IMG/VR virus record: IMGVR_UViG_3300018476_000009
Location: 1 to 39,944 of that record
DNA length: 39,944 bases
From: a virus
Strand: one strand, 5' to 3'
A model generated the notes under the pieces. That model was not told the origin of the DNA. It ran no database searches and worked only from the letters and a program-made list of their open reading frames with translations. Position 1 is the first letter of the stretch; each line of letters begins with the position of its first letter. Of the stretch, positions 124-39,944 are shown piece after piece. A program made the position numbers and the translations under genes.

Positions 124-1795
124 AGCGGAGCAGAACAAGGGCTGGATTGGCGCCGAAGAGGCGACACGCACGATTCGCGTGGCCGAATACTGGTACGCGG
201 AGTACACGCCGACGACGGTGACGCTCTATACCCTGCCGGACGGCTCGGAACAGGCCATCTGGGCGCCAGACCCCGTGCCGCCCGGCGCGGTGCCGGTGAT
301 GGACGGTGATAAGCCGGTCAGCCGCGTCGTGCAGAAGCGGGCGGTGCGCTGGTGCAAGATCACCGCGAACGAGATCCTCGAAGAGACCGACTGGGAAGGG
401 CAGTACATCCCGATCGTCCCGGTCGTCGCGAAAGAATACAACCTGAACGGCGTGCGGCTGTGGAAGGGTGTCGTGGAACCCGCCATGGACGCGCAGCGCC
501 TCGTGAATTACGCCGCCTCGGGTGTCGCGGAAGCGGTCGGGATCGGCGTGAAGGCGCAGGCGATGCTGGACCCGGAGCAGATCGAAGGCTACGAGACGCA
601 GTGGGACCAGGCCAACGTCCGCAATCTGCCGTATCTGCCGCGCCGCGCGTTCAATGACCGCGGCGAACCGTATCCCCCGATTGAGCGACTGCTCTCGGAG
701 CCGCCGATTCAGGCCGTGTCGCAGTTGCTGATGCAGGCGACGCAGTTCGTGCAGCAGACGACGGCGACGCCCGCCAGCAGCCTCGGCCAGTTGGACCCGA
801 CGCACCGGAGCGGGAAGGCGATCCAGGCGCTGCAGCAGCAGAGCGAACTGGCGAACAGCAATTACCTGGACAACCTCGCGACGATCAGCATGACGCTCGA
901 GGGGAAGATCCTGAACGAGATGCTGACGCCGGTCTACGGGAACCGTCCCGGCCGCATCGTGCAGATCCTCGGGGAAGACGGGAAGCCCGAACCGACGATG
1001 CTCAATGCGCCGTTTGTGCAGGGGCCGAAGGGGCCGCTGCCCGCGCCGCCCGTGACGAACCCGCAGAACCCGCCGCAGATCATCGACCTGCAGCAGGGCG
1101 GGCAGTATCACGTCGTGGTGGAGATTGGGAAGACGGCGACGACCAAGCGGCAGGAAGCCTCGGACGCGATGGGCGAACTGCTGCCGCATCTGCCGCCGGA
1201 AATGGCCGCGCCGCTGCTGCCCGAATACATCGAGCAACTGGACTTCCCCGGCGCGAAGAAGATGGCGGCGATGGCGAGGAAGTCCCTGCCGGCGCATCTG
1301 CAGGAGCCGGAAGACGGGCAGCCGCCGCCGATTCCGCCGGACGTGCAGCAGCAGATGGATCAGATGCAGCAGCAGATGCAGGAGCTGCAGCAACTCGCCG
1401 ACAAGAACAAGACCGACCTGATGAAGGCGCAGATCCAGGCACAGGCGGACCTCGAGAAGGCGCAGGTGCAGGCGCAGGCCGATACGCAGCAGGCGCAGAT
1501 GGACGGCGAGGTGCGGATTCGCGTGGCGGGGATTCAGGCCGAGAGCACCGTGGCCTCTGCCGAGATTAAAGCCATGATGGACGACTGGGCGAACCGGCTG
1601 GCGCACATGGAAGCGTTGATTGGGATCGATGCGGACCAGCAGGCGATGGTGGCGCAGCAGCAGCACGAGCGCGAGATGGCCGATCTGGGGCATCAGCAGA
1701 CGCTCGAGCAGGGCGAGCAGGGCGCGGCGTTCACGTCGGACCAGATGGCGCAGCAGGCCGCGCTGCAGCCGCCGAACGGGACGGGGCTGGAATGA
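1..1795 (+). CDS. portal protein, 3' portion; continues from 39292..39944 across the circular junction (joined product 774 aa)
   Basis: Frame 2 is open from base 2 to TGA 1793-1795. The frame is continuous with the ORF at 39292 once the 123-nt overlap is removed (530+1795 nt = 775 codons). The size, the position after terL, and a long Q/A-rich helical C-terminal tail (QQQMDQMQQQMQELQQL...) resemble P22-type portals. Confidence 0.85.
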   Translation, partial: EPDACDGDWAFKWSDYPEDRFQREFPKAKLAQASSQELEAEAEQNKGWIGAEEATRTIRVAEYWYAEYTPTTVTLYTLPDGSEQAIWAPDPVPPGAVPVMDGDKPVSRVVQKRAVRWCKITANEILEETDWEGQYIPIVPVVAKEYNLNGVRLWKGVVEPAMDAQRLVNYAASGVAEAVGIGVKAQAMLDPEQIEGYETQWDQANVRNLPYLPRRAFNDRGEPYPPIERLLSEPPIQAVSQLLMQATQFVQQTTATPASSLGQLDPTHRSGKAIQALQQQSELANSNYLDNLATISMTLEGKILNEMLTPVYGNRPGRIVQILGEDGKPEPTMLNAPFVQGPKGPLPAPPVTNPQNPPQIIDLQQGGQYHVVVEIGKTATTKRQEASDAMGELLPHLPPEMAAPLLPEYIEQLDFPGAKKMAAMARKSLPAHLQEPEDGQPPPIPPDVQQQMDQMQQQMQELQQLADKNKTDLMKAQIQAQADLEKAQVQAQADTQQAQMDGEVRIRVAGIQAESTVASAEIKAMMDDWANRLAHMEALIGIDADQQAMVAQQQHEREMADLGHQQTLEQGEQGAAFTSDQMAQQAALQPPNGTGLE

Positions 1796-24473: not shown

Positions 24474-25541
24474 TCACTTGTCGTCGTCGCCGCTGGTTTC
24501 GGCCAGCCGGTCGGCTGGCTCCAGCAGATTGACCGCCGCGCGCAGGTAGGGCATCACCTGCCCGCCGACATACCGCTTGGTCATCTTGGCCGAGCGGTGG
24601 CGCATCAGTTCCTGCGTCACTTTCAGGTTCATGGTGCGCTCGAGGACGAACGTCCCGAAGGTGTGCCGCAGGTCGTAGGGGCGTGCCCGCGCCAGCTCCT
24701 GCCGCGTGGCCTCGTCCAGGTCACCGCGCAGCAGCAGCCGCCGGCAGACGTTGACGAACCCCTGCCGCACGGACTTGCTGGAGAAGGGGCGCCCGACCAG
24801 TTCCGCACTGCGGAACGCCGCGAGCGCCGCCACGCCAGCCGCGGACAGCGGATACTCGCCGCCCACAATCCCCTTGCCCTTGATGCGGCGCTGCAGGTAG
24901 ACGCTCGCGGCCTCGAGGTGGAAGTCCCGTGGGCGCAGGCGCCGCATCTCGGCGGGCGTAATCCCCGTGTGGAGCATCACCGTCGCCACGACCTTCGCGA
25001 GGTTCACCGTGGTGCGCTTCTGCCCTTTCACGGGTGGCCCCAGGTTGTGCCACGCCTCGAGGATCAACGCGATGGTGCGCGGCGACAGGTCGCGCGGTTC
25101 GGGGTCCGGTTCGGTGTGCGTCTTCACGTCGCGCAGGACACTGGGCGCCGCCTTGCCGTCCAGCGTGCTCCAGAGATGCGACAGCGCGGTGCGGTAGTGA
25201 TTGCACGTCCCGGCGGCGCGCGAGAGGCGCAGCTCCGCGAGCGCGCGGGCAATCATCGGCGCCGTGATCGACGTGCGGGGGAGATGCCCGAGTCGTCGCG
25301 TCCACCAATCGAGTTGCCGCTCGCGCTCCTTCAGGAGGGCAGGCCGGTCGATCAGCGTGGCGAGATAGACCGGGACATCCGCGGCGAGGGACCCGGCGCG
25401 GGCCTTCGGCAGACCGAGATCGATCTGATTCCGCACGCGGGCCTTCCACGCCGCGATGACCGCATCCGGTGTGCCGATGGGGAAGGTCTCCTGCACTTGT
25501 CGGCCGCGCACCTTCGTCGTCGCGCGGAACGTGTGCGCCAT
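24474..25541 (-). CDS. int: tyrosine recombinase (phage integrase) (355 aa)
   Basis: C-terminal catalytic signature ...HTGITPAEMRRLR...RRIKGKG...YDLRHTFGTFVL...ELMRHRSAKMTKRY. Confidence 0.9.
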   Translation of the reverse strand: MAHTFRATTKVRGRQVQETFPIGTPDAVIAAWKARVRNQIDLGLPKARAGSLAADVPVYLATLIDRPALLKERERQLDWWTRRLGHLPRTSITAPMIARALAELRLSRAAGTCNHYRTALSHLWSTLDGKAAPSVLRDVKTHTEPDPEPRDLSPRTIALILEAWHNLGPPVKGQKRTTVNLAKVVATVMLHTGITPAEMRRLRPRDFHLEAASVYLQRRIKGKGIVGGEYPLSAAGVAALAAFRSAELVGRPFSSKSVRQGFVNVCRRLLLRGDLDEATRQELARARPYDLRHTFGTFVLERTMNLKVTQELMRHRSAKMTKRYVGGQVMPYLRAAVNLLEPADRLAETSGDDDK

Positions 25542-27298: not shown

Positions 27299-27538
27299 TT
27301 GGATTTTCTCTTGGCAGGCACGGATTTGCTCAACGCGCATCCGCTGCTGTTCGTGGCGGGCGTGCTGGCGGCGGCGCTGGTGGTCTGGAAGCTCACCGTG
27401 CTGATTGGCCTGGAGTGGGAGATTCGGGCGGCGCATCGCGCGTCGCGGCGGGCGCAGCAGCGGGAACAGGCGCAGCGGCGCGAGGCGACCCTCCAGCAGA
27501 TTGCGCGCTTCCGGCGGAACACGAAGGGAGCGGCGTAA
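27299..27538 (+). CDS. small membrane protein with a basic C-terminal tail (79 aa)
   Basis: TTG start with AGAGAGG upstream. TM segment LLFVAGVLAAALVVWKLTVLIGL. Confidence 0.5.
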   Translation: MDFLLAGTDLLNAHPLLFVAGVLAAALVVWKLTVLIGLEWEIRAAHRASRRAQQREQAQRREATLQQIARFRRNTKGAA

Positions 27539-27738
27539 TGGATACCCGCACCCACTACCTCCCCTCGTTTACGAAGCGCGACGACCTCGGACGCCAGCAG
27601 GCGATCTGCGGCGCGTGGACGTGGCCGGAACAGCACCGCATCGATCCGGCGGAACTCGGCTGCTGGGGCTGCCGGATGTGGATGGAGAACCTGCACCTGA
27701 TCGAACCCGAGACGGCCGACGAGCGGAGGACCGCATGA
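27538..27738 (+). CDS. hypothetical protein (66 aa)
   Basis: TAATG overlap with AAGGGAG upstream. Confidence 0.5.
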   Translation: MDTRTHYLPSFTKRDDLGRQQAICGAWTWPEQHRIDPAELGCWGCRMWMENLHLIEPETADERRTA

Positions 27739-28511
27739 CGCTTGCACTCATCGAACGTCAGCCGCAGTCCGTCGCGGTCACCGCCGACGAAGTCGCGCTC
27801 GTCCGAGAGACCGTCGCGAAGGGTGCCACGGACGCCGAACTGAAACTGTATTTCTACGACTGCCAGCGACAGGGCGTCCACCCGTTGGACCGATTGATTC
27901 ACTTCACGAAGCGCGGGAACAAATACACGCCGGTCATCGGCATCGACTTCATGCGGACGCGTGCGGCTGACAGCGGCGAGTATGCCGGCAGCGACGATGC
28001 CGCGTTTACCGGGAAGCAGAAGGCCGACGACTGGGCGGCGACGGTGACGGTGTGGCGCATCGTGCAGGGGCAGCGGTGCGCCTTCACGGCGACGGCGCGC
28101 TGGAGCGAATACAAGCCGGATGCGGCGCACATGTGGGCGCGGATGCCGCACACGATGCTCGCGAAGTGCGCGGAGGCGTTGGCGCTCCGCAAGGGCTTCC
28201 CGCGGCAGTTGGCGGGCCTCTACGCGCAGGAGGAGATGGCGCAGGCTGACCGGCCCTCGAACGGGAACGGCCACGGGCCGCGCCCGGTGGTGGTCGAGCC
28301 TGAGACGTTGGACGAGCTCACGGGCGAACTCGTGCCGGGGGCGCCGGATGGCTTCGACTCGTGGTGGCTGGACATGGTGGCGTGCGCGGACACCGGCACG
28401 GCGGCGCTGCAGGCGGCGTGGGCGCAGTCGGATCGTCGGTTCAAGGCGTTCACCATGAACCAGCGACGCGCCGAGTGGGCGGCGTTGAAGACGAAGGCGG
28501 GGGCGCGGTGA
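27735..28511 (+). CDS. recT: RecT-family single-strand annealing protein (258 aa)
   Basis: ATGA overlap with GGAGGA RBS. VAKGATDAELKLYFYDCQRQGVHPLDRLIHF...VIGIDFMRTRAADSGEYAG...MPHTMLAKCAEALALRKGFP is the RecT pattern. Confidence 0.8.
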   Translation: MTLALIERQPQSVAVTADEVALVRETVAKGATDAELKLYFYDCQRQGVHPLDRLIHFTKRGNKYTPVIGIDFMRTRAADSGEYAGSDDAAFTGKQKADDWAATVTVWRIVQGQRCAFTATARWSEYKPDAAHMWARMPHTMLAKCAEALALRKGFPRQLAGLYAQEEMAQADRPSNGNGHGPRPVVVEPETLDELTGELVPGAPDGFDSWWLDMVACADTGTAALQAAWAQSDRRFKAFTMNQRRAEWAALKTKAGAR

Positions 28512-31649: not shown

Positions 31650-32095
31650 GGCGCGAAACAGACCCCTTCGTCGGCAAACTTTCGAGCGTCCTGAAGGACA
31701 TTCTGGCGGTCAGAATCACCCTGCGCGAGGCCGGTGCCACGGACGCCGCCATCGCCACCACCACCGGCCGGATGCTGCGCGAGAAGTGGCCGGTTAAGGG
31801 CCGCGAGTGGCACTACCACTGCGAGACCTGCAGCGACTCAGGCTGGCAGCCCCGCGTCTGCACGCCACAGACCCCGTGCGGGCGTCCGTTTCGGGTCCCC
31901 GGCGCGCATAGCGACGACTGGACGGGTAAGGGTCAGTGCTCACCCGGACATGCATACGTCCAGCCCTGCCTGGACTGCGCGCGTGGGTATCAGCGTCGAT
32001 CGGACCTCGCCCGCGTGGCACAGCCTGACGACTACGCCGCCGCCGGCAAGACCGCTCCGAAGCCGAAGGGGTTCAGCCGGTGGGGCGACCGATGA
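31646..32095 (+). CDS. Cys-rich protein (149 aa)
   Basis: GTGA overlap. HCETCSDSGW...C...C...C...CLDC. Confidence 0.45.
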   Translation: MRRETDPFVGKLSSVLKDILAVRITLREAGATDAAIATTTGRMLREKWPVKGREWHYHCETCSDSGWQPRVCTPQTPCGRPFRVPGAHSDDWTGKGQCSPGHAYVQPCLDCARGYQRRSDLARVAQPDDYAAAGKTAPKPKGFSRWGDR

Positions 32096-32295
32096 CGGAC
32101 GAATCGCGCGTGCTCGCGGTGCTGGAGACCCGTCGCCAGCTCAATCAGGCGCAAGTGATCCAGGCGTGCCGGATGGGCGCCTATGCCTGCATGGACGCCC
32201 TCGCGCGGCTGATCGACCTCGGGCTCGTGGAGCGCACCACGTATCGCAGTGGACGCGCGGGACGGCCGGCGTTGCTGTATCGGCGGTGCGCGTGA
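32092..32295 (+). CDS. MarR-like winged-helix protein (67 aa)
   Basis: ATGA overlap. RVLAVLETRRQLNQAQVIQACRMGAYACMDALARLIDLGLVER. Confidence 0.45.
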   Translation: MTDESRVLAVLETRRQLNQAQVIQACRMGAYACMDALARLIDLGLVERTTYRSGRAGRPALLYRRCA

Positions 32296-32867
32296 GAGTG
32301 CTGGTGGCCTGCGAGTTCTCGGGCGTGGTGCGGGATGCTTTCCGCGCGGCGGGGCATGGTGCCCTGAGCTGCGACCTGTTGCCCAGCGAGGCGCCGGGGC
32401 CGCACTATCAGGGCGATGTGCGCGATCTCCTGCACGAGGGCTGCTGGGATCTCCTCATCGCCCATCCGCCTTGCACGCATCTCGCGGTGAGCGGGGCGCG
32501 GTGGTTCACGGAGAAGCGCACGGAACAGACCGCGGCGCTCGACTTCGTGCGAGATCTGCTGGCCGCTCCGGTGCCGCGGATCTGTCTCGAGAACCCGGTG
32601 AGCATCATCTCGACGCACATCCGCCACGCGGACCAGATCATCGAGCCGTGGCAGTTCGGGCACGGAGAGGTGAAGCGCACCTGTCTGTGGTTGAAGTCGC
32701 TGCCGCGCCTGGTGCCCACGCAGATCGTGGACGGACGGCACGCGCGTGTGCATCGAGAACCGCCCGGACCAGACCGTTGGAAGAACCGATCGAGAACCTT
32801 CGTCGGCATTGCCGCCGCGATGGCCGACCAGTGGGGCCACGTCGCAGACTGGGAGTTGACCGCCTGA
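32292..32867 (+). CDS. short C-5 cytosine DNA methyltransferase-like protein (191 aa)
   Basis: GTGA overlap. The last 191 aa of track ORF 31734..32867. CEFSGVV (motif I-like), HPPCTHLAVSG (motif IV PPC-like), LENPVS (motif VI ENV-like). Too short to hold a classical target-recognition domain. Confidence 0.55.
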   Translation: MRVLVACEFSGVVRDAFRAAGHGALSCDLLPSEAPGPHYQGDVRDLLHEGCWDLLIAHPPCTHLAVSGARWFTEKRTEQTAALDFVRDLLAAPVPRICLENPVSIISTHIRHADQIIEPWQFGHGEVKRTCLWLKSLPRLVPTQIVDGRHARVHREPPGPDRWKNRSRTFVGIAAAMADQWGHVADWELTA

Positions 32868-33235
32868 TGGGATTCCGACGACGCGCAGGCGGCGGGCACA
32901 AATATCAAGCTGTGGCGACGACGGTGCATGGCTTTCGGTTCGCGTCGAAGGCTGAAGCGCGGCGCTATCAGGACTTACTGCTGATTGGGATGGCTGGCGA
33001 GATTAGGAACCTTGAACTCCAGCCGCGGTTCGATCTGCATGTCGGCGGGGTGAAGGTGGCGACCTACGTGGCGGACTTCCGCTACGAGGAGCGTGTCTCG
33101 GGCGCGCATCAGTTGCCCTGGCGCGATGTCATCGAAGATGTGAAGGGTGTCCGCACGCCGACGTACCGAATGAAGCAGAAGCACATGGTGGCGGAATACG
33201 GCATCACGATCCGCGAAGTGCGGATGAAGCCATAG
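32867..33235 (+). CDS. DUF1064-family protein (nuclease or resolvase-like fold) (122 aa)
   Basis: TGATG overlap. KYQAVATTVHGFRFASKAEARRYQDLLL...GEIRNLELQPRFDL...YVADFRYEE...IEDVKG fits the DUF1064 pattern as I remember it. Confidence 0.55.
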   Translation: MGFRRRAGGGHKYQAVATTVHGFRFASKAEARRYQDLLLIGMAGEIRNLELQPRFDLHVGGVKVATYVADFRYEERVSGAHQLPWRDVIEDVKGVRTPTYRMKQKHMVAEYGITIREVRMKP

Positions 33236-33258
33236 AGGCGGTGTTCTGAAAATACCTG

Positions 33259-33287
33259 TTGACAATAACGAAGCGGTTGGATATTAT
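33259..33287 (+). promoter_or_regulatory. consensus sigma70-type promoter P_C (TTGACA-17 nt-TATTAT)
   Basis: TTGACA 33259-64 and TATTAT 33282-87. The ATG of the next gene starts 7 nt after the -10 (33294), so a leaderless mRNA is predicted. Shares AAGCGGTT-NGG-TATTATCT with P_D. Confidence 0.65.
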
Positions 33288-33293
33288 CTCTGT

Positions 33294-33479
33294 ATGGACA
33301 TCAAAGATTTGCGCGAGGGGCAACTGGTCAACCGAGCAACCACTGGGAAAACCTACGTGGTGCGAGGCGATTACTGGCATCAGCCCATCGTTGTAAACGG
33401 TAAGGTGAGTGTGGTTGGAACGCGCAACGACGCGCCGTATGGTCGCATGATGATGATTCCCGTGGCGGAACTCAAATGA
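33294..33479 (+). CDS. hypothetical small protein, probably translated from a leaderless mRNA (61 aa)
   Basis: No SD. The ATG sits at the predicted transcription start of P_C. Locally lower GC. Confidence 0.5.
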   Translation: MDIKDLREGQLVNRATTGKTYVVRGDYWHQPIVVNGKVSVVGTRNDAPYGRMMMIPVAELK

Positions 33480-33910
33480 GCGAAACCATCCCGCGCAGGT
33501 GTCGGCTTGACACGATGACCGTGGCTGAGCGCGCCATTTTTACGGCCATACAGGCCGTCGAAGATCTCCCTGCTGATGGGCGGCTCACAGATGCGGTTGT
33601 GTTGCTACAAGAGGCGCGCACGTCCGTAGGCGACTACGTTGACGCGGTTCCAAGACGAGAATCGCCACTCGCTAAGGCCAATGCCGCCGTTTTGCGGAGC
33701 CTCGACCGAAGAGATGTGCTTGATGCTGAACTCACCGAACTGCGTGCGCGTTGCGCCGAGTTGGTCGCGGATCGGGATGACATCGTGGAAGCGATCGCGG
33801 ATTATGTCAGCCATCTACGCGACGACTCCGAAAGCGCGGTGATCGCGGCAGTGGCCAAGGCGATCCGATCGCGGTTCATCAATCCCTTACACCACAAGTT
33901 GAGGCGCTGA
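33476..33910 (+). CDS. hypothetical helical protein (144 aa)
   Basis: ATGA overlap. Confidence 0.5.
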   Translation: MSETIPRRCRLDTMTVAERAIFTAIQAVEDLPADGRLTDAVVLLQEARTSVGDYVDAVPRRESPLAKANAAVLRSLDRRDVLDAELTELRARCAELVADRDDIVEAIADYVSHLRDDSESAVIAAVAKAIRSRFINPLHHKLRR

Positions 33911-34059
33911 TGGCGCGGAAGAATCCCGCGGCGATGGCCCTCGGAAAACTCGGTGGTCGTGCGAAGTCAGACGCCAAGACGAAAGCAGCTCGCGAGAACG
34001 CGAAGCGCGGAGGATGGCCCAAAGGCAAGAAGCGCGGCCCTCGCAAGTCTTCAGGTTGA
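33910..34059 (+). CDS. small Lys/Arg-rich protein, paralogue 1 (49 aa)
   Basis: TGATG overlap. Hand translation MARKNPAAMALGKLGGRAKSDAKTKAARENAKRGGWPKGKKRGPRKSSG. Paralogous to 35986..36126. Confidence 0.55.
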   Translation: MARKNPAAMALGKLGGRAKSDAKTKAARENAKRGGWPKGKKRGPRKSSG

Positions 34060-34073
34060 GAGGCGGTGTTCTG

Positions 34074-34514
34074 ATGGGATCGTGGAAGTTTACGGACCAG
34101 GAAGCAATCATCGTGGAATTACAGCAGCGTCTCTCTGAGGTAGAAGCCGAGCGGGACTTGCTGAAGGAAATCATCGGCACGTATGACGGTGACGGGGTAT
34201 CCGCTGACTGTTCGCTGGCAATCGCCACACTCCAGAGTGAAACCGGTGGCGAGGTGAACTACTCACGGGCTGACCGCGAGATTCACGACGCGCTCGCCCG
34301 TGGCGTAGACGCAGGGCGACAAGTGACTCAACTATTGGCCGATCAGGAGCGGATGCGAGAGGCGCTGGTGAAGTGGGGAAAGCATCCTGCGACGTGTCCG
34401 AAGGGGGTGGGACTTGGCTACTACGTGCCAAGGGTGGACGCGGTATGTAACTGCGGCATCGACGCTGCCCTGTCCCCTCCGAGACAGCCAAAGGAGTCCC
34501 TCCCCCATGCGTGA
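34074..34514 (+). CDS. hypothetical coiled-coil protein with a C-terminal Cys cluster (146 aa)
   Basis: ATG 34074 with GAGAGG upstream; the track start overlaps the previous small gene. ...HPATCPKG...VCNCG. Confidence 0.5.
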   Translation: MGSWKFTDQEAIIVELQQRLSEVEAERDLLKEIIGTYDGDGVSADCSLAIATLQSETGGEVNYSRADREIHDALARGVDAGRQVTQLLADQERMREALVKWGKHPATCPKGVGLGYYVPRVDAVCNCGIDAALSPPRQPKESLPHA

Positions 34515-34884
34515 ACAGACCCTCGTTCAGCGCATCAAAGCCCGTCGAACGAACGGTGGTGAGCCATGCCCTGAATACGTGCCGAAGAAGCCGGAGGACT
34601 ACGGCTACGGCTCATGTAAACGGTGCGGTTGGGCCGAACCCGAACACTGCATCGACCAACTCCTTGGCGCTGTAACCACCCTCACCGCACGGTGCGAGGC
34701 GCTGGAGCAGGCGAACGCACGCCAGCAATCGCTGTTCAATGACCTGTTCCTGCTCTGCACAGCGGACTACGAGACGGTGGTGACACGCTTTGCCGAGAGT
34801 CGCCTGCGCGATGACAGCAACCGCGTCAACTACATGGCTGAACTACTGGCCGATGTCGCAACAACCGAAGGAGCACCCGAATGA
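34507..34884 (+). CDS. hypothetical protein with an N-terminal Cys cluster and a coiled coil (125 aa)
   Basis: AAGGAG upstream. 8-nt overlap with the previous gene. CPEY...CKRCGW...HC. Confidence 0.5.
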   Translation: MREQTLVQRIKARRTNGGEPCPEYVPKKPEDYGYGSCKRCGWAEPEHCIDQLLGAVTTLTARCEALEQANARQQSLFNDLFLLCTADYETVVTRFAESRLRDDSNRVNYMAELLADVATTEGAPE

Positions 34885-35483
34885 AACTCCCGAGCGCCGT
34901 GCTTGCCACTCGAGACCGCTACGTCGAGACCTTCCCCCTGTGGACGATGCCCGAAGGCCCAGCCGCCGAAGACCAGGCCCGTCAGTGGACGCTCGGCCTC
35001 GTCTCCCAGATTGTCTTCGAGCACGGCACCACCTACGGCTCGAAACGTGCGGACCCGAATCGGCCCATCAGTAAGGACGGCCTCGCGCAACAGCAAGGTG
35101 CCACGCTCCTCGTCTGGGACATGTTGTCCGCTGCAGGAACCGGCTCGCCCAGCCTGAACCAGAACCCGGACAGTCAGGACATCACCGGGCAAATCTACGA
35201 GCACGTCGAGGGCCGCGACATCATCGGCGGGGCGCCGGACATCGACGAACCCGACCCGCCCTCGAGCGGCTGCCCGCCCTACGACGACAACCAGGCGGTG
35301 GCGTTTGGCTCGGCCTGTAACGAGGTCTACAACCAGACATCCAGCCCCATTGACCCCGGCATGATTGCGGTCCAGTCGATGCGCTGCCAGTGGGACTACT
35401 GCTGCGGCGGGTTGACGTGGGACGAGTCCTACACGAAGCACATTAATGAGCTGCGCGCGATTTATTCGCTGCCGCCGATTTAG
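34881..35483 (+). CDS. hypothetical protein (200 aa)
   Basis: ATGA overlap with strong GAAGGAG. Cys-rich C-terminus (RCQWDYCCGG). No catalytic motif recognised. Confidence 0.55.
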   Translation: MKLPSAVLATRDRYVETFPLWTMPEGPAAEDQARQWTLGLVSQIVFEHGTTYGSKRADPNRPISKDGLAQQQGATLLVWDMLSAAGTGSPSLNQNPDSQDITGQIYEHVEGRDIIGGAPDIDEPDPPSSGCPPYDDNQAVAFGSACNEVYNQTSSPIDPGMIAVQSMRCQWDYCCGGLTWDESYTKHINELRAIYSLPPI

Positions 35484-35486
35484 ATG

Positions 35487-35515
35487 TTGACACAAGCCAA
35501 GCGGTTCGGTATTAT
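35487..35515 (+). promoter_or_regulatory. consensus sigma70-type promoter P_D (TTGACA-17 nt-TATTAT), paralogue of P_C
   Basis: TTGACA 35487-92 and TATTAT 35510-15. 11 of 17 spacer positions are identical to P_C, including AAGCGGTT. Confidence 0.65.
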
Positions 35516-35561
35516 CTTCTCATCGGGTCGGCACTGACGCCCACCGACGGGGAGAGACGAG

Positions 35562-35759
35562 ATGACGATTGAAACGCAGACAGGCCAGGTCGTGACGATT
35601 CGCACACGGGAAGTCGGCCAGAAGTTCGGCGTCGTGGGCGAAGTGGTCTCGCGGAATGGACGGGTATTGGCGACGACGGAGACCTACCCCTACGGGTTCG
35701 ACAATCAGGCGCATCTCGCGGCGGTGAAGTTGGCCGTCGCTTACGGACAGGTGCGCTAA
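35562..35759 (+). CDS. hypothetical small protein, weakly YegP/DUF1508-like (65 aa)
   Basis: GGGGAGAG RBS. ...SRNGRVLATTETYPYGFDNQAHLAAVKLAV loosely recalls the NG..I..S..Y......A...I motif. Confidence 0.45.
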   Translation: MTIETQTGQVVTIRTREVGQKFGVVGEVVSRNGRVLATTETYPYGFDNQAHLAAVKLAVAYGQVR

Positions 35760-35986
35760 TGGACGCGCAGGGGCGTGCCCGGCTGACCGAGATTCTCAAC
35801 CAGCACGACGCGGTGGCTCGGGCGCTCCGCACCGGCAGTGATGCCTTTGACCAGCTCATAGTGGACTTGCAGTCCGTGGCAACCATGACTCATGCCGCCA
35901 ATGAGGCGCAGCGGGTCGCCATTGATGCCCTGCTGGCGGCGAACCGCGCCGCGCTGTCGCTCCTCAACGACGAGGAGGGACGCTGA
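35759..35986 (+). CDS. hypothetical helical protein (75 aa)
   Basis: TAATG overlap. Confidence 0.45.
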   Translation: MDAQGRARLTEILNQHDAVARALRTGSDAFDQLIVDLQSVATMTHAANEAQRVAIDALLAANRAALSLLNDEEGR

Positions 35987-36126
35987 TGGCGAAGCATCCC
36001 GCCGCCGTCGCGCTCGGGAGACTCGGCGGCCAAGCCAAGTCGGCCGCGAAAACGAAAGCCGCTCGCGCGAACGCGAAGAAAGGCGGATGGCCGAAAGGCC
36101 GCAAGCGGAAGGCACCGGATGACTGA
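35986..36126 (+). CDS. small Lys/Arg-rich protein, paralogue 2 (46 aa)
   Basis: TGATG overlap. Hand translation MAKHPAAVALGRLGGQAKSAAKTKAARANAKKGGWPKGRKRKAPDD. Confidence 0.55.
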   Translation: MAKHPAAVALGRLGGQAKSAAKTKAARANAKKGGWPKGRKRKAPDD

Positions 36127-36334
36127 GCGAGACGTGCGCCGCGAGTTTGTCGCCATTCAGCAGGCGTCCCAACGCGCCTCGGACCGCGCCTATGCCGAAG
36201 GCGACGATAGCCTCATCCTGCTGAGTGGGCTGCTCACGGCCATCTCGGCTATCTGCGCCCTCGCCATCGCGGGCATCGACCAGGGTGAAGTCACCGCGCC
36301 GCCCCTGTCCATCGTCTGGCGGAAAGAGTCCTAA
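36119..36334 (+). CDS. small protein with one TM helix (71 aa)
   Basis: 8-nt overlap with the previous gene. SLILLSGLLTAISAICALAIAGI. Last gene before the terminase genes. Confidence 0.5.
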   Translation: MTERDVRREFVAIQQASQRASDRAYAEGDDSLILLSGLLTAISAICALAIAGIDQGEVTAPPLSIVWRKES

Positions 36335-36346
36335 TGGGACCAAACA

Positions 36347-36388
36347 CGCGTCAAAGTTACGTAGTTCTGTCCCATAATCGCGTCAAAG
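36347..36388. repeat. 10-bp direct repeat CGCGTCAAAG x2, 32 bp apart, upstream of the terS-like gene
   Basis: Copies at 36347-56 and 36379-88, in the 104-bp AT-richer gap before ATG 36439. Confidence 0.6.
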
Positions 36389-36968: not shown

Positions 36969-38267
36969 ATGCCCGTCGTCACCCTGAACTACGAGCCGCG
37001 CCCGCACGCCGTCGAGATTCACCGCGGCATGGACAAGCACCGCTTCGGCGCGGTGGTGGCGCATCGTAGATTCGGAAAAACTGTGTGCGCGGTGATGCAC
37101 CTGATCGTCTGCTGCCTCGAGAACAAACGGCCGCATCCCGTCCCGCGCTACGCCTTCATCGCGCCCTTCCTCGGCCAAGCCAAGACCGCCGCATGGGAAT
37201 ACCTGACCTACTACACGCAGGCCATCCCCGGCGCCGTGGCGATGGTCTCCGAGCTGAAGGTGACCTTCCCGCATGGGGGCTACGTGCGGCTGTTCGGCGC
37301 GGACAACCCGCAAGCGTTTCGTGGCGGCTACTGGGACGGCGTGGTGTTCGATGAGTTTGGGGAGCAGCCGCCGAACATCTACAGCGAGATTCTGCGGCCG
37401 TCACTCAGCGACTACAGCGGGTGGGCGCTGTTTTTGGGAACCCCGGCTGGCAAGAACCAGTTCTATGAGACCGTGCAGCAGGCCAAGCACGACCCCGCCT
37501 GGTATTACGCCGAGTTCAAAGCCAGTCAGACCGGCATCATCCCGGCGTCGGAGCTGGCGCTGGCCGCCAAGGACATGACTGCGGACGAGTATGCCCAAGA
37601 ATACGAGTGCAGTTTTGAAGCGTCGGTCAAGGGCGCCATATACGCCGGAGAGTTGGCAGGGGCGCGTGATGGCGGCCGTATCGGCCGCGTTCCCGTGGAC
37701 CCGATCCTCCCGGTGGATACCCACTGGGATCTCGGCGTGGGAGACGCCACAGCCATCTGGTTCTCCCAGTCTTTGCGTTCAGGTGAGCTTCGAGTCGTGG
37801 ACTACTACGAAGCCAGCGGCGAAGGCTTACCGCACTACGCGCAGATGCTGTCAGCCAAGGGCTACACCTACCGGCAGCACTGGGCGCCGTTCGACATCGA
37901 AGTCAAAGAGCTAGGGACGGGACGCAGCCGGCTTGAGGTGGCGCGCTCGCTGGGCATCAATTTCAAGATCGTGCCGCAGATTGGCGTCGAGGACGGCATT
38001 CATGCCGCCCGGATGCTGTTCCCGCGCTGCTGGTTCGATGAGGGGCGGTGCTCGGCCGGCCTCGAGGCGCTGCAGCACTACCGAAGGGACTACAACACTA
38101 GGCTCAACGAGTTCAAGGCGACGCCTGTCCATAATTGGGCCTCACACGCCGCAGACGCGTGGCGCTACCTGGCGGTGAGCCAGCAGACGCCGAAGGAGAA
38201 GGTGAAGCCGCGGCACCAGACCGGCCTCTACGGCAGCGGCCAGCATGATCATGGGTGGTTGGGATGA
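36969..38267 (+). CDS. terL: terminase large subunit (432 aa)
   Basis: Walker A-like AHRRFGKT, Walker B-like WDGVVFDEFG, and a nuclease-half pattern ...THWDLGVGDATAIWFSQ...EVARSLGINF. Confidence 0.85.
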   Translation: MPVVTLNYEPRPHAVEIHRGMDKHRFGAVVAHRRFGKTVCAVMHLIVCCLENKRPHPVPRYAFIAPFLGQAKTAAWEYLTYYTQAIPGAVAMVSELKVTFPHGGYVRLFGADNPQAFRGGYWDGVVFDEFGEQPPNIYSEILRPSLSDYSGWALFLGTPAGKNQFYETVQQAKHDPAWYYAEFKASQTGIIPASELALAAKDMTADEYAQEYECSFEASVKGAIYAGELAGARDGGRIGRVPVDPILPVDTHWDLGVGDATAIWFSQSLRSGELRVVDYYEASGEGLPHYAQMLSAKGYTYRQHWAPFDIEVKELGTGRSRLEVARSLGINFKIVPQIGVEDGIHAARMLFPRCWFDEGRCSAGLEALQHYRRDYNTRLNEFKATPVHNWASHAADAWRYLAVSQQTPKEKVKPRHQTGLYGSGQHDHGWLG

Positions 38268-39295: not shown

Positions 39296-39944
39296 GCAAA
39301 GACCCCTCGCAGAAGCCGAAGAAGCTCGAGCAAGCCCTGAAGCGGTTCAAGGTCGGCGACGACGCCACGAAGGCGCAAGCGGACCGGGAACTGGCCGCGC
39401 TGACCTTCGAGAGCGGCGACCAGTGGCCCGCGTGGGTGAAGCGGTCCCGCGAAGGCGCGAATCCCGGCGGGGACACGAACCCCGGCGCGCGGCCGATGCT
39501 GACCATCAGCCAGATTGACCAGCCCGTCCAGCAGATCATCAACCAGCAGAAGAATGCCGACCTCGGCATCACCATCAGCCCGACCGGGGACGCCTCTGTT
39601 GAGGACGCCGAGATTCGGCAGGGGCTGATTCGGCATATTCAGGTGCAGTCGCGAGCGCAGTTGGCGCGGGACTGGGCGTATGAGCGGGCGGTGAAGTGCG
39701 GGCGCGGGTTCTACGAGGTGTGCAAGGCGTGGTCGGATGACCCCGCGCAGCCGTTCGACCAGGAGCTGCGGGTGCGCCGGATTCTCGACCAGAGCAAGGT
39801 GATGGTGGACCCGTTCGCGCAGGAACCCGATGCGTGCGACGGCGACTGGGCGTTCAAGTGGTCCGACTACCCGGAGGACCGCTTCCAGCGGGAGTTCCCG
39901 AAGGCGAAACTGGCGCAGGCGAGCAGCCAGGAGCTCGAGGCCGA
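39292..39944 (+). CDS. portal protein, 5' portion (continues at base 124 after removing the terminal overlap)
   Basis: GTG 39292 overlaps the previous stop (GTGA). The frame stays open to the end of the window. Hand translation VSKDPSQKPKKLEQALKRFKVGDDATKAQADRELAALTFESGDQWPAWVKRSRE... Absent from the ORF track because it has no stop in the window. Confidence 0.8.
   Translation, partial: MSKDPSQKPKKLEQALKRFKVGDDATKAQADRELAALTFESGDQWPAWVKRSREGANPGGDTNPGARPMLTISQIDQPVQQIINQQKNADLGITISPTGDASVEDAEIRQGLIRHIQVQSRAQLARDWAYERAVKCGRGFYEVCKAWSDDPAQPFDQELRVRRILDQSKVMVDPFAQEPDACDGDWAFKWSDYPEDRFQREFPKAKLAQASSQELEA
39822..39944. repeat. terminal direct repeat copy 2, identical to 1..123
   Basis: Same comparison as copy 1. 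The repeat lies inside the portal reading frame. Confidence 0.95.

Follow-up and report, generated by a model that had tools for sequence, protein, structure and literature searches.

Two small-gene cassettes in a temperate phage genome share a dyad-bearing promoter and a terminal basic mini-protein gene

The window analysed here, the whole 39,944-nt stretch of viral DNA in IMG/VR record IMGVR_UViG_3300018476_000009, contains a locus of ten plus-strand open reading frames (ORFs; orf1 to orf10, Table 1), with recombination and replication genes on one side and packaging genes on the other. Within this locus lie two units of the same layout, here called cassettes, each composed of a promoter (P_C in cassette 1, P_D in cassette 2), two cargo ORFs (orf1 and orf2; orf7 and orf8) and a gene for a Lys/Arg-rich mini-protein (orf3; orf9). 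Cassette 1 extends over about 33222-34058 and cassette 2 over 35484-36118. An earlier interpretation made from the letters alone (hereafter the sequence-only reading) had described two small ORFs, an identical junction and a basic protein of 46-49 residues after each promoter, which is what we found, and it had correctly placed the modules between replication genes (RecT and a DUF1064 protein upstream) and packaging genes (the large terminase TerL and the portal downstream). Its description of the Cys-rich orf4 and orf5 and of a membrane segment in orf10 was also accurate; the extent that it gave to the modules was not, as the unit ends at the basic gene and orf6 and orf10 belong to the phage backbone. 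None of the ten products was recognisable to it, and our searches of Pfam, PHROGs, NCBIfam and PADLOC likewise returned no meaningful match. Rfam gave no match to the region, and among deposited phages there was no DNA match to it and one weak protein match.

Both promoters stand out within the window. TTGACA-N17-TATTAT, the form already assigned to them, occurs exactly twice, at P_C and P_D, and not once in 100 shuffles. When sigma-70 promoters were sought as hexamers near TTGACA and TATAAT spaced 16-18 bp apart, P_C and P_D were the two best matches, with 11 of 12 hexamer positions and a 17-bp spacer. They are 82% identical to each other over 33 nt. The spacer string that they had been said to share is indeed present in both, whereas the NGG said to follow it is not: the bases before TATTAT are GGA and CGG, with only the middle G in common. 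The 31-nt pattern TTGACA-N6-AAGCGGTT-N3-TATTATCT matched P_C and P_D alone in the window, even with 3 mismatches allowed, and the exact window-type pattern had no match in the viral contigs scanned.

Three features go beyond what had been noted: a dyad in the promoter spacer, a probable leaderless start of orf1, and a wide distribution of promoter and basic gene. The spacer of P_C holds a degenerate form of the family dyad, AAGCGGTTGGATAT, at 33271-33284, centred between 33274 and 33275, and that of P_D holds AAGCCAAGC joined to GGTTCGGTA. No further dyad copy was found elsewhere in the window, the integrase/immunity region included. The ATG of orf1 follows the -10 hexamer of P_C after 7 nt and has no Shine-Dalgarno sequence, so that a leaderless mRNA is predicted from P_C. 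The same geometry was observed in L128, L004, L009, L016 and L089; an open ATG or GTG lies 6-17 nt past the dyad in 35 of 80 related sites, and at many sites an ATG lies 11-13 nt past it. P_D is separated from orf7 by a 46-nt leader with the Shine-Dalgarno sequence GGGGAGAG.

The promoter was found together with the basic gene on many unrelated contigs. In the first of these, the promoters of basic-gene operons share the P_C/P_D spacer (L001, cTTGCAATACCCAAGCGGTTAGGTATAGT; L004, TTGCAATACCGGAGCGATTAGGTATTGT; L007, TTGAAATAGCTAATCGGTTAGGTATTGT). The dyad element was located at most 3 kb upstream of the basic gene in 73 of 92 distinct neighbourhoods, at a density of 1.03 sites per kb over the last 500 nt upstream of the gene, 0.2-0.7 back to -3 kb and 0.03-0.07 past the gene start. 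In 13 neighbourhoods the promoter directly precedes the basic gene, as in L089, where TTGACAAACCCAAGCGCTTAGGTATAAT is followed after 7 nt by ATG AAG AAT CCC. Scans of the viral collection that started from the motif recovered a basic gene near or downstream in 38 of 48 stretches overall (15 of 22 with AAACCNNAGCGGTTNGGTTT, 7 of 8 with TTGNAATANCNNANCGNTTNGGTATNNT and 16 of 18 with TTGACAAACCNAASCGSTTNGGT); the stretches lacking one were mostly cut by a contig end or contained plain hairpins. The basic gene is the sole gene conserved across the related loci, and none of the window cargo ORFs clusters with any ORF of about 90 such loci. For orf7, just two homologues were found in 5.8 billion proteins. 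One locus, L133, combines the same promoter type with a leader 72% identical and an orf7 homologue, which is followed directly by the basic gene, without orf8. In L128, window positions 33222-33304 match positions 734-815 at 88% despite different upstream genes; this 83-nt promoter region, with the 16-mer discussed below, is accompanied by a basic gene 85% identical to orf3 in amino acids, and the cargo between them is a single unrelated 68-aa ORF. Promoter and mini-protein gene are thus near-obligate partners, and these two ends are conserved across many unrelated contigs around a variable cargo.

Several arrangements of the basic gene were seen in addition. It stands directly upstream of terminase genes in 22 loci (e.g., L094, with a 597-aa large-terminase-like protein), and in L007 (4001-6152) it is followed by a 155-aa ORF and a Terminase_6N gene; both arrangements parallel the position of orf9 two genes before terS. 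Two copies of the basic gene are present in L004 (2178-2327 and 4001-4201, flanking an integrase gene), L044 and L078, and in L129 a cassette directly follows an integrase. A terminator hairpin precedes 16 of 80 related promoters. Several contigs have five or six such promoters in a row, and many of these come after a GC-rich hairpin with a T-run, which forms a composite terminator-promoter (e.g., L058, L059, L029).

From 83 non-redundant sites, each turned to read in the same direction as its basic gene, we derived a profile. It shows an A-tract at -17 to -14, cTTG at -8 to -5, an 18-bp dyad with the arms AACCnAAsC and GsTTnGGTT, and a T-rich -10 stretch; conservation at positions within the search pattern is inflated by the way in which sites were collected, that of the flanking features is not. 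The consensus dyad-promoter site is TTGACAAACCCAAGCGCTTGGGTTATAAT. The cTTG keeps a fixed spacing on the gene-distal side of the dyad, and the dyad itself keeps a fixed position between -35 and -10 and is conserved beyond promoter needs. Enrichment of 8-mers, which uses no pattern, recovered TTGACAAACCCAA and AACCGCTTCGGTTT. The centre of the dyad occurs in an asymmetric form in both orientations (AAGCGGTT, AACCGCTT) and also as the perfect palindrome AAGCGCTT. Its outermost arm positions covary (A..T in 90 cases, T..A in 20, mixed in 18), and the form of the arms tracks the subtype of the mini-protein tail, T..A occurring with GGWP (15 of 19 sites; TACC..GGTA) and A..T with GGRP (87 sites; AACC..GGTT). 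Such covariation would fit a site that is recognised by a symmetric dimer and has evolved together with it.

Two other identities of these sites were considered and rejected. An extracytoplasmic function (ECF) sigma promoter, AAC-N17-CGTC, proposed for sites of the GGTTTT type, fits one sub-lineage only and not the window. As a terminator, the dyad forms stems that are too short at promoter-type sites; some perfect palindromes (L095, L096, L098) are plain hairpins. A second motif, (C)AACAACGACA(A), lies 10-25 nt past many related promoters (e.g., L058 2411, L059 3713, L029 2071); the window lacks it. Among 8-mer families it shows the strongest enrichment ahead of the basic gene (21 of 68 regions, versus 1 downstream), and one phage lineage may use it as a leader or translation signal.

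The mini-protein belongs to a large family. More than 100 close relatives, all without names, lie on phage-sized contigs, and a profile search retrieved at least 1,251 clusters at 90% identity and 3,469 representatives at 50% identity. Members are 45-50 residues long, with the consensus KNPAAVALGRLGG-x-V-x-S-x-AK-xx-AAR-x-NGKKGGRPKK. Most of the family ends in KGGRPKK or KGGRPRK; the window proteins are of a GGWPKGRKR subtype. For the wider family, of which 28 members were tested, neither Pfam nor PHROGs had a matching entry, NCBIfam gave no match to the window proteins, and the KGG repeat profile (PF10685) reached at best an E value of 0.14, in 1 of the 28 members. One JGI record bears the name YciG. 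The protein is essentially missing from deposited phage genomes and occurs in metagenome-assembled genomes (MAGs) of Vicinamibacterales, Bryobacteraceae, Sulfotelmatobacter, Candidatus Aquilonibacter and Myxococcaceae. An exact-string literature search for the protein motifs found no paper, and neither the promoter/mini-protein unit nor the protein family appears to have been described before.

In an AlphaFold2 model of orf9 based on an alignment of 137 sequences, the protein is predicted to form helices at residues 5-15 and 20-34, followed by an extended Lys/Arg tail (mean predicted local distance difference test score [pLDDT], 83); a shallower alignment gave the same layout at a pLDDT of 69. 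The modelled monomer has two helices and no N-terminal strand; ribbon-helix-helix repressors (Arc/Mnt/CopG) are dimers with a strand ahead of two helices. With both models, Foldseek found no match in the Protein Data Bank (PDB). The only PDB sequence match, a HEAT-like AAxALGxIG string of designed alphaRep proteins, was judged to be a chance helix-turn motif. The mini-protein is likely to bind DNA. One family member is fused in frame to a Sigma70_r4-type helix-turn-helix directly after the basic domain.

The basic domain also forms the C-terminus of diverse larger proteins with unknown N-terminal domains, and other variants carry an N-terminal HxC...CxxC extension or C-terminal Cys-rich extensions; the fused forms, the helix-turn-helix one included, come from P0287, P0218, P0236 and others and from L031, L020, L081 and L087. 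In L001 and L004, as in the window (orf4, orf5), genes located 3' of the basic gene are Cys-rich. In the Bryobacteraceae and Sulfotelmatobacter MAG loci L092 and L093, RKNPAAVALGRLGG heads another type of small protein, in which it is followed by GGKARAEKLSAEQ..SEIARKA..ARW repeats without a GGRPKK tail; as this string heads two protein types, the N-terminal helix may be a shared module.

The borders of cassette 2 could be read from a close relative, L111, with a TerL 92% identical. There, one unrelated 182-aa ORF replaces P_D, orf7, orf8 and orf9. The left edge of the replacement is the orf6 stop codon, at P_D, and the right edge is the orf10 start codon. L111 retains the end of orf6 and the whole of orf10, with window positions 36119-36387 matching at 90.7% DNA identity; as both genes persist without cassette 2, they are backbone genes. 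A second relative, L121 (TerL 73% identical), lacks orf1-10, the promoter motif and the basic gene. The cassettes thus behave as insertion/replacement units. By eye, the ORF in the L111 slot (231-779) resembles HNH/AP2-type homing-endonuclease-like proteins of phages (strings WKGMMDRCYN, YGGRGI and DRIDNDGAYEPGNVRW). A further 78-aa ORF lies at 1136-1372 of L111, between orf10 and terS, and is absent from the window.

Around cassette 1, an exact 16-bp repeat pair (33234 and 34059) brackets P_C, orf1, orf2 and orf3. Its significance is its position at both edges of the unit and not its length; the pair is compatible with, and no evidence for, a mechanism via an excised mini-circle. The low local GC content remarked on in the sequence-only reading is real: the kilobase from 33 to 34 kb has the lowest value in the window, 0.583, and orf1 reaches 0.54. 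GC content at third codon positions (GC3) is 0.64-0.65 in cassette 1 and 0.64-0.67 in orf1-5 as a whole, compared with 0.74-0.9 in orf6-10 and about 0.8-0.9 in most of the genome, so that the segment starting at cassette 1 looks like a later arrival. Cassette 2, at 0.74-0.80, is near the backbone value. No relative spanning the cassette 1 site was found, as the TerL-based search yielded L111, which begins inside orf6, and L121, which is too distant. No close relative of orf4 was present in viral or metagenome contigs.

The two basic genes were compared directly. The proteins encoded by orf3 and orf9 are 79% identical over 39 aa and the genes 77% identical over 117 nt, and both ORFs are entered through an identical CGCTGATGGCG in which stop and start codons overlap, preceded by GAGG or GGAGGG. 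Eighteen of the 28 nucleotide differences fall at third codon positions, the ratio of nonsynonymous to synonymous substitution rates (dN/dS) is 0.16, and synonymous divergence (dS) is about 0.96; orf3 and orf9 are therefore real genes under purifying selection that, by this measure, split long ago. The protein of L128 is closer to orf3 than orf9 is, which favours two independent acquisition events over a duplication within the genome. Paralogy over the full length of the cassettes was sought and not found: comparison of orf1 with orf7 gave E = 0.056, and that of orf2 with orf8 gave nothing.

The first and last 123 nt of the window are identical (1-123 = 39822-39944), and thus the assembly is circular, or terminally redundant, with 39,821 bp; it is apparently a complete phage genome. 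From its recognisable genes (integrase, RecT, DUF1064, a Terminase_6N-type TerL and a P22-type portal), the phage is a temperate tailed phage. Its host is probably a member of the Acidobacteriota. Upstream of the DUF1064 gene, an ORF at 31734-32867 contains HPPCTHLAVSG and ENPV strings and looks cytosine-methyltransferase-like by eye; at E <= 0.001, Pfam returned nothing for it. Eight exact direct repeats of 16-21 nt occur in the genome (5159/11397, 10312/11927, 7509/7701 and others), more than expected at random for its size, the longest being the 21-nt CGCCGCTCGTGGACGGCGCCA. Two 17-nt direct repeats 32 nt apart, CCAAACACGCGTCAAAG (36340-36356) and CCATAATCGCGTCAAAG (36372-36388), lie in the gap between orf10 and the putative terS. 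The DNA around this pair is kept in L111 at about 91%, and the pair could be a packaging or regulatory site.

Table 1. Coordinates of the locus features and of the recognisable genes in the window
Feature	Position	Strand	Description
P22-type portal	179-1795		Downstream flank of the locus on the circle
Integrase	24474-25541	minus	Recognisable gene
RecT	27405-28511		Upstream flank of the locus
DUF1064 protein	32867-33235		Upstream flank of the locus
Conserved segment upstream of P_C	33222-33258	plus	16-bp repeat copy 1 and A-rich tract GAAAATA; overlaps last codons and stop of the DUF1064 gene
16-bp repeat, copy 1	33234-33249	plus	AGAGGCGGTGTTCTGA; exact
P_C	33259-33287	plus	-35 TTGACA 33259-33264, 17-nt spacer, -10 TATTAT 33282-33287
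orf1	33294-33479	plus	61 aa; cargo of cassette 1; GC 0.54; no family match
orf2	33476-33910	plus	144 aa, acidic; cargo of cassette 1; no family match; no relative among ORFs of ~90 related loci
orf3	33910-34059	plus	49 aa, isoelectric point (pI) 12.0; basic mini-protein, GGWPKG subtype; 3' end of cassette 1
16-bp repeat, copy 2	34059-34074	plus	From last base of orf3 stop to A of orf4 ATG
orf4	34074-34514	plus	146 aa, 4 Cys; GC3 0.67; downstream of cassette 1
orf5	34507-34884	plus	125 aa, 6 Cys; GC3 0.67
orf6	34881-35483	plus	200 aa; GC3 0.84; backbone gene, 3' end conserved in L111
P_D	35487-35515	plus	-35 TTGACA, 17-nt spacer, -10 TATTAT; dyad at 35494-35511
orf7	35562-35759	plus	65 aa; cargo of cassette 2
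orf8	35759-35986	plus	75 aa, helical, acidic; cargo of cassette 2
orf9	35986-36126	plus	46 aa, pI 11.6; basic mini-protein; 3' end of cassette 2
orf10	36119-36334	plus	71 aa; one transmembrane segment (Kyte-Doolittle 2.52); backbone gene outside cassette 2
TerL	36969-38267		Terminase_6N-type large terminase; downstream flank of the locus

In our judgement it is moderately probable that the locus contains two independent copies of a mobile regulatory cassette, akin to morons and to the promoter-early stem-loop (PeSL) cassettes of other phages, with a dyad-bearing promoter at one end and a probable DNA-binding mini-protein, perhaps autoregulating, at the other. Such a cassette would have three parts: a promoter region of ~40 bp (A-rich tract, TTGACA, dyad-bearing spacer, TATTAT), one to three hypervariable cargo ORFs, and a gene for a 45-50-residue protein predicted to fold as a two-helix hairpin with a Lys/Arg tail. 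The holoenzyme of the host's main sigma factor would fire the promoters, the P_C transcript being leaderless, and cargo and mini-protein would share one transcript, on which translation of the mini-protein would be coupled through the TGATG overlap and its own GAGG. A dimer of the mini-protein may then occupy the dyad between -35 and -10 and limit its own and the sister cassette. The mini-protein is proposed as the reader of the dyad because it is the product of the only conserved gene in these loci and because the pairing is near-obligate in both directions. In the manner of PeSLs, the conserved ends may serve as homology patches for the exchange of cargo between phages. That the locus is modular and expandable, as suggested before, is supported by the 16-bp repeats, the replacement in L111, the varied cargo elsewhere and the tandem promoters, up to six, on related contigs.

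A number of observations weigh against this interpretation. Regarding the operator, both window dyads are degenerate and weakly symmetric; P_D is 2 mismatches from the consensus and P_C more than 3, so that only P_D is found when up to 3 are allowed. The association of arm form with protein subtype, a statistic that ignores kinship, may reflect two clades, that is, one evolutionary event. As for the pairing, about a dozen basic genes with sufficient upstream sequence have no dyad, and arrays of 5-6 tandem promoters with a single basic gene on related contigs indicate that the promoter is not strictly one per gene. Neither window cassette is bounded by a terminator-like site, and no stem-loop lies beside P_C or P_D. 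An exact 16-nt repeat is not rare in this genome, which has 8 pairs of at least 16 nt, and the left copy belongs to the promoter-upstream segment conserved in L128, so that the repeat may be the remnant of an adjacent cassette and not a target duplication. Finally, orf3 and orf9 have GWP instead of the GRP core of an AT-hook, and no family member tested matches the Pfam AT_hook profile (PF02178).

In the sequence-only reading, the modules were seen as cassettes for counter-defence or host takeover, with strong early promoters driving them. This proposal concerns the role of the cargo and is compatible with mobile cassettes as described above; we consider it possible, if rather unlikely. The cargo consists of small, hypervariable orphan genes behind consensus promoters, located between recombination/replication and packaging genes and present or absent among relatives, all of which is typical of arms-race genes. 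However, the proteins show no similarity to those of PADLOC, Pfam or PHROGs, the sole conserved product is a probable DNA-binding mini-protein and not an inhibitor-like fold, and a moron in a temperate phage may equally serve the lysogen.

Alternatively, the dyad might be the operator of another regulator, of host or phage, and the mini-protein a nucleoid-associated or anti-silencing binder of AT-rich DNA, or an accessory of packaging or excision. The promoter arrays with one basic gene do look like a regulon, the basic gene often lies directly upstream of the large terminase or by an integrase, and the GGRPKK tail resembles the AT-hook-like motifs with which the xenogeneic silencers H-NS and Lsr2 contact AT-rich minor grooves (PMC4466236); homologues of such silencers are carried by phages (PMC7074111). 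Nevertheless, motif-first searches nearly always recovered the basic gene, which is unexpected for a freely used host operator, and no other gene is conserved across the loci. The integrase/immunity region of the window is devoid of the dyad, and the terminase adjacency comes largely from one phage lineage. We hold this account, too, to be doubtful.

It is very improbable that the two units arose by simple tandem duplication within this genome, with the spacer conserved through recent common descent only, although they have the same order of parts and the identities between promoters and between basic genes could suggest it. The dS of the basic genes, the closer kinship of orf3 with the L128 protein, the unrelated cargo ORFs and the different GC3 of the cassettes speak against it, and in contigs that differ widely in GC content and terminase type, each position of the spacer element is kept while the adjacent ones vary freely. 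Divergence and composition thus already contradict a duplication. An alternative in which no "basic protein" is made and the conservation is that of a DNA or RNA element is hardly credible, for while the ORF is very short, of low complexity and without a database family, its changes fall mostly at third positions under a low dN/dS, its frame is kept in thousands of homologues as the DNA diverges, a Shine-Dalgarno sequence of its own precedes a start codon that overlaps the stop of the ORF before it, Rfam does not match it, and it is fused in frame to other domains.

Among known systems, the mobile cassettes proposed here most invite comparison with the PeSLs of T4-like phages (Arbiol et al. 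2010, PMC2839356; Comeau et al. 2014, PMC4122927). As with PeSLs, short, conserved, strong sigma-70-like promoters are repeated in variable regions beside small orphan genes and mark the edges of insertions, deletions or replacements between close relatives; the window has two copies, and related contigs have as many as six. A composite of terminator and promoter is shared by the related contigs only (16 of 80 promoters). In contrast to PeSL phages, those described here are temperate, about 40 kb in size and have a P22-type portal. Moreover, the window copies lack a stem-loop and have a dyad in the promoter spacer instead, and the other end of the unit is a conserved protein gene, which PeSL cassettes do not have.

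The cassettes also resemble the morons of temperate phages (reviewed by Cumby et al. 2012, PMC3594210), as independent transcription units between backbone genes that spread horizontally and are present in one phage and absent from a relative (cassette 2 compared with L111). Morons often deviate in base composition, as cassette 1 does and cassette 2 does not. Classical morons are, however, mutually unrelated and have their own promoter, gene and terminator, whereas the cassettes share one promoter type and one terminal gene, and the window copies lack terminators. A regulatory parallel is found in the immI region of P22, where Arc, a very small ribbon-helix-helix repressor encoded by the first gene of its operon, acts on an operator dyad between -35 and -10 of Pant. 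The likeness lies in a tiny phage protein encoded in the operon that it would repress, in a dyad within the promoter spacer, and in the brief burst of expression that would be expected. Unlike Arc, the mini-protein is modelled as two helices and a basic tail without an N-terminal strand, and its gene is the last one.

The tail recalls AT-hooks (HMGA; H-NS and Lsr2, PMC4466236) in that a Gly-Arg-Pro core is flanked by Lys/Arg in an extended segment, most members having KGGRPKK or KGGRPRK. In the window proteins, however, Trp replaces the core Arg (GGWPKGRKR), and the conserved N-terminal KNPAAVALGRLGG helix has no AT-hook counterpart. Integron cassettes are likewise small, swappable, mostly orphan genes in arrays; they are promoterless and end in attC sites that are handled by an adjacent integrase. 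Here, by contrast, each unit has its own promoter, and there is no attC-like site or dedicated integrase.

PeSL-type promoter cassettes are known mainly from T4-like phages of cultured hosts. The present findings extend their logic to temperate phages of uncultured, probably soil, bacteria, and add to it an operator dyad in the promoter and a terminal mini-protein. A bolder view, which we regard as quite unlikely, is that promoter and mini-protein form a self-contained operator-regulator pair and define a new class of mobile cassette, with self-limiting bursts of cargo expression, ends that act as exchange handles among uncultured phages, probably including phages of Acidobacteriota, and two orthogonal specificities of an undescribed 45-residue fold. 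If the pair does regulate itself, it could serve as a repressor-operator part of very small size, available in two natural specificities. Together, promoter and mini-gene offer a simple way to flag cargo genes computationally in phage contigs from metagenomes, and new anti-defence or lysogenic-conversion genes are likely to be among such cargo. Members of the mini-protein family number in the thousands and lack annotation, so that assigning the family any function would annotate genes in many phage genomes in one stroke.

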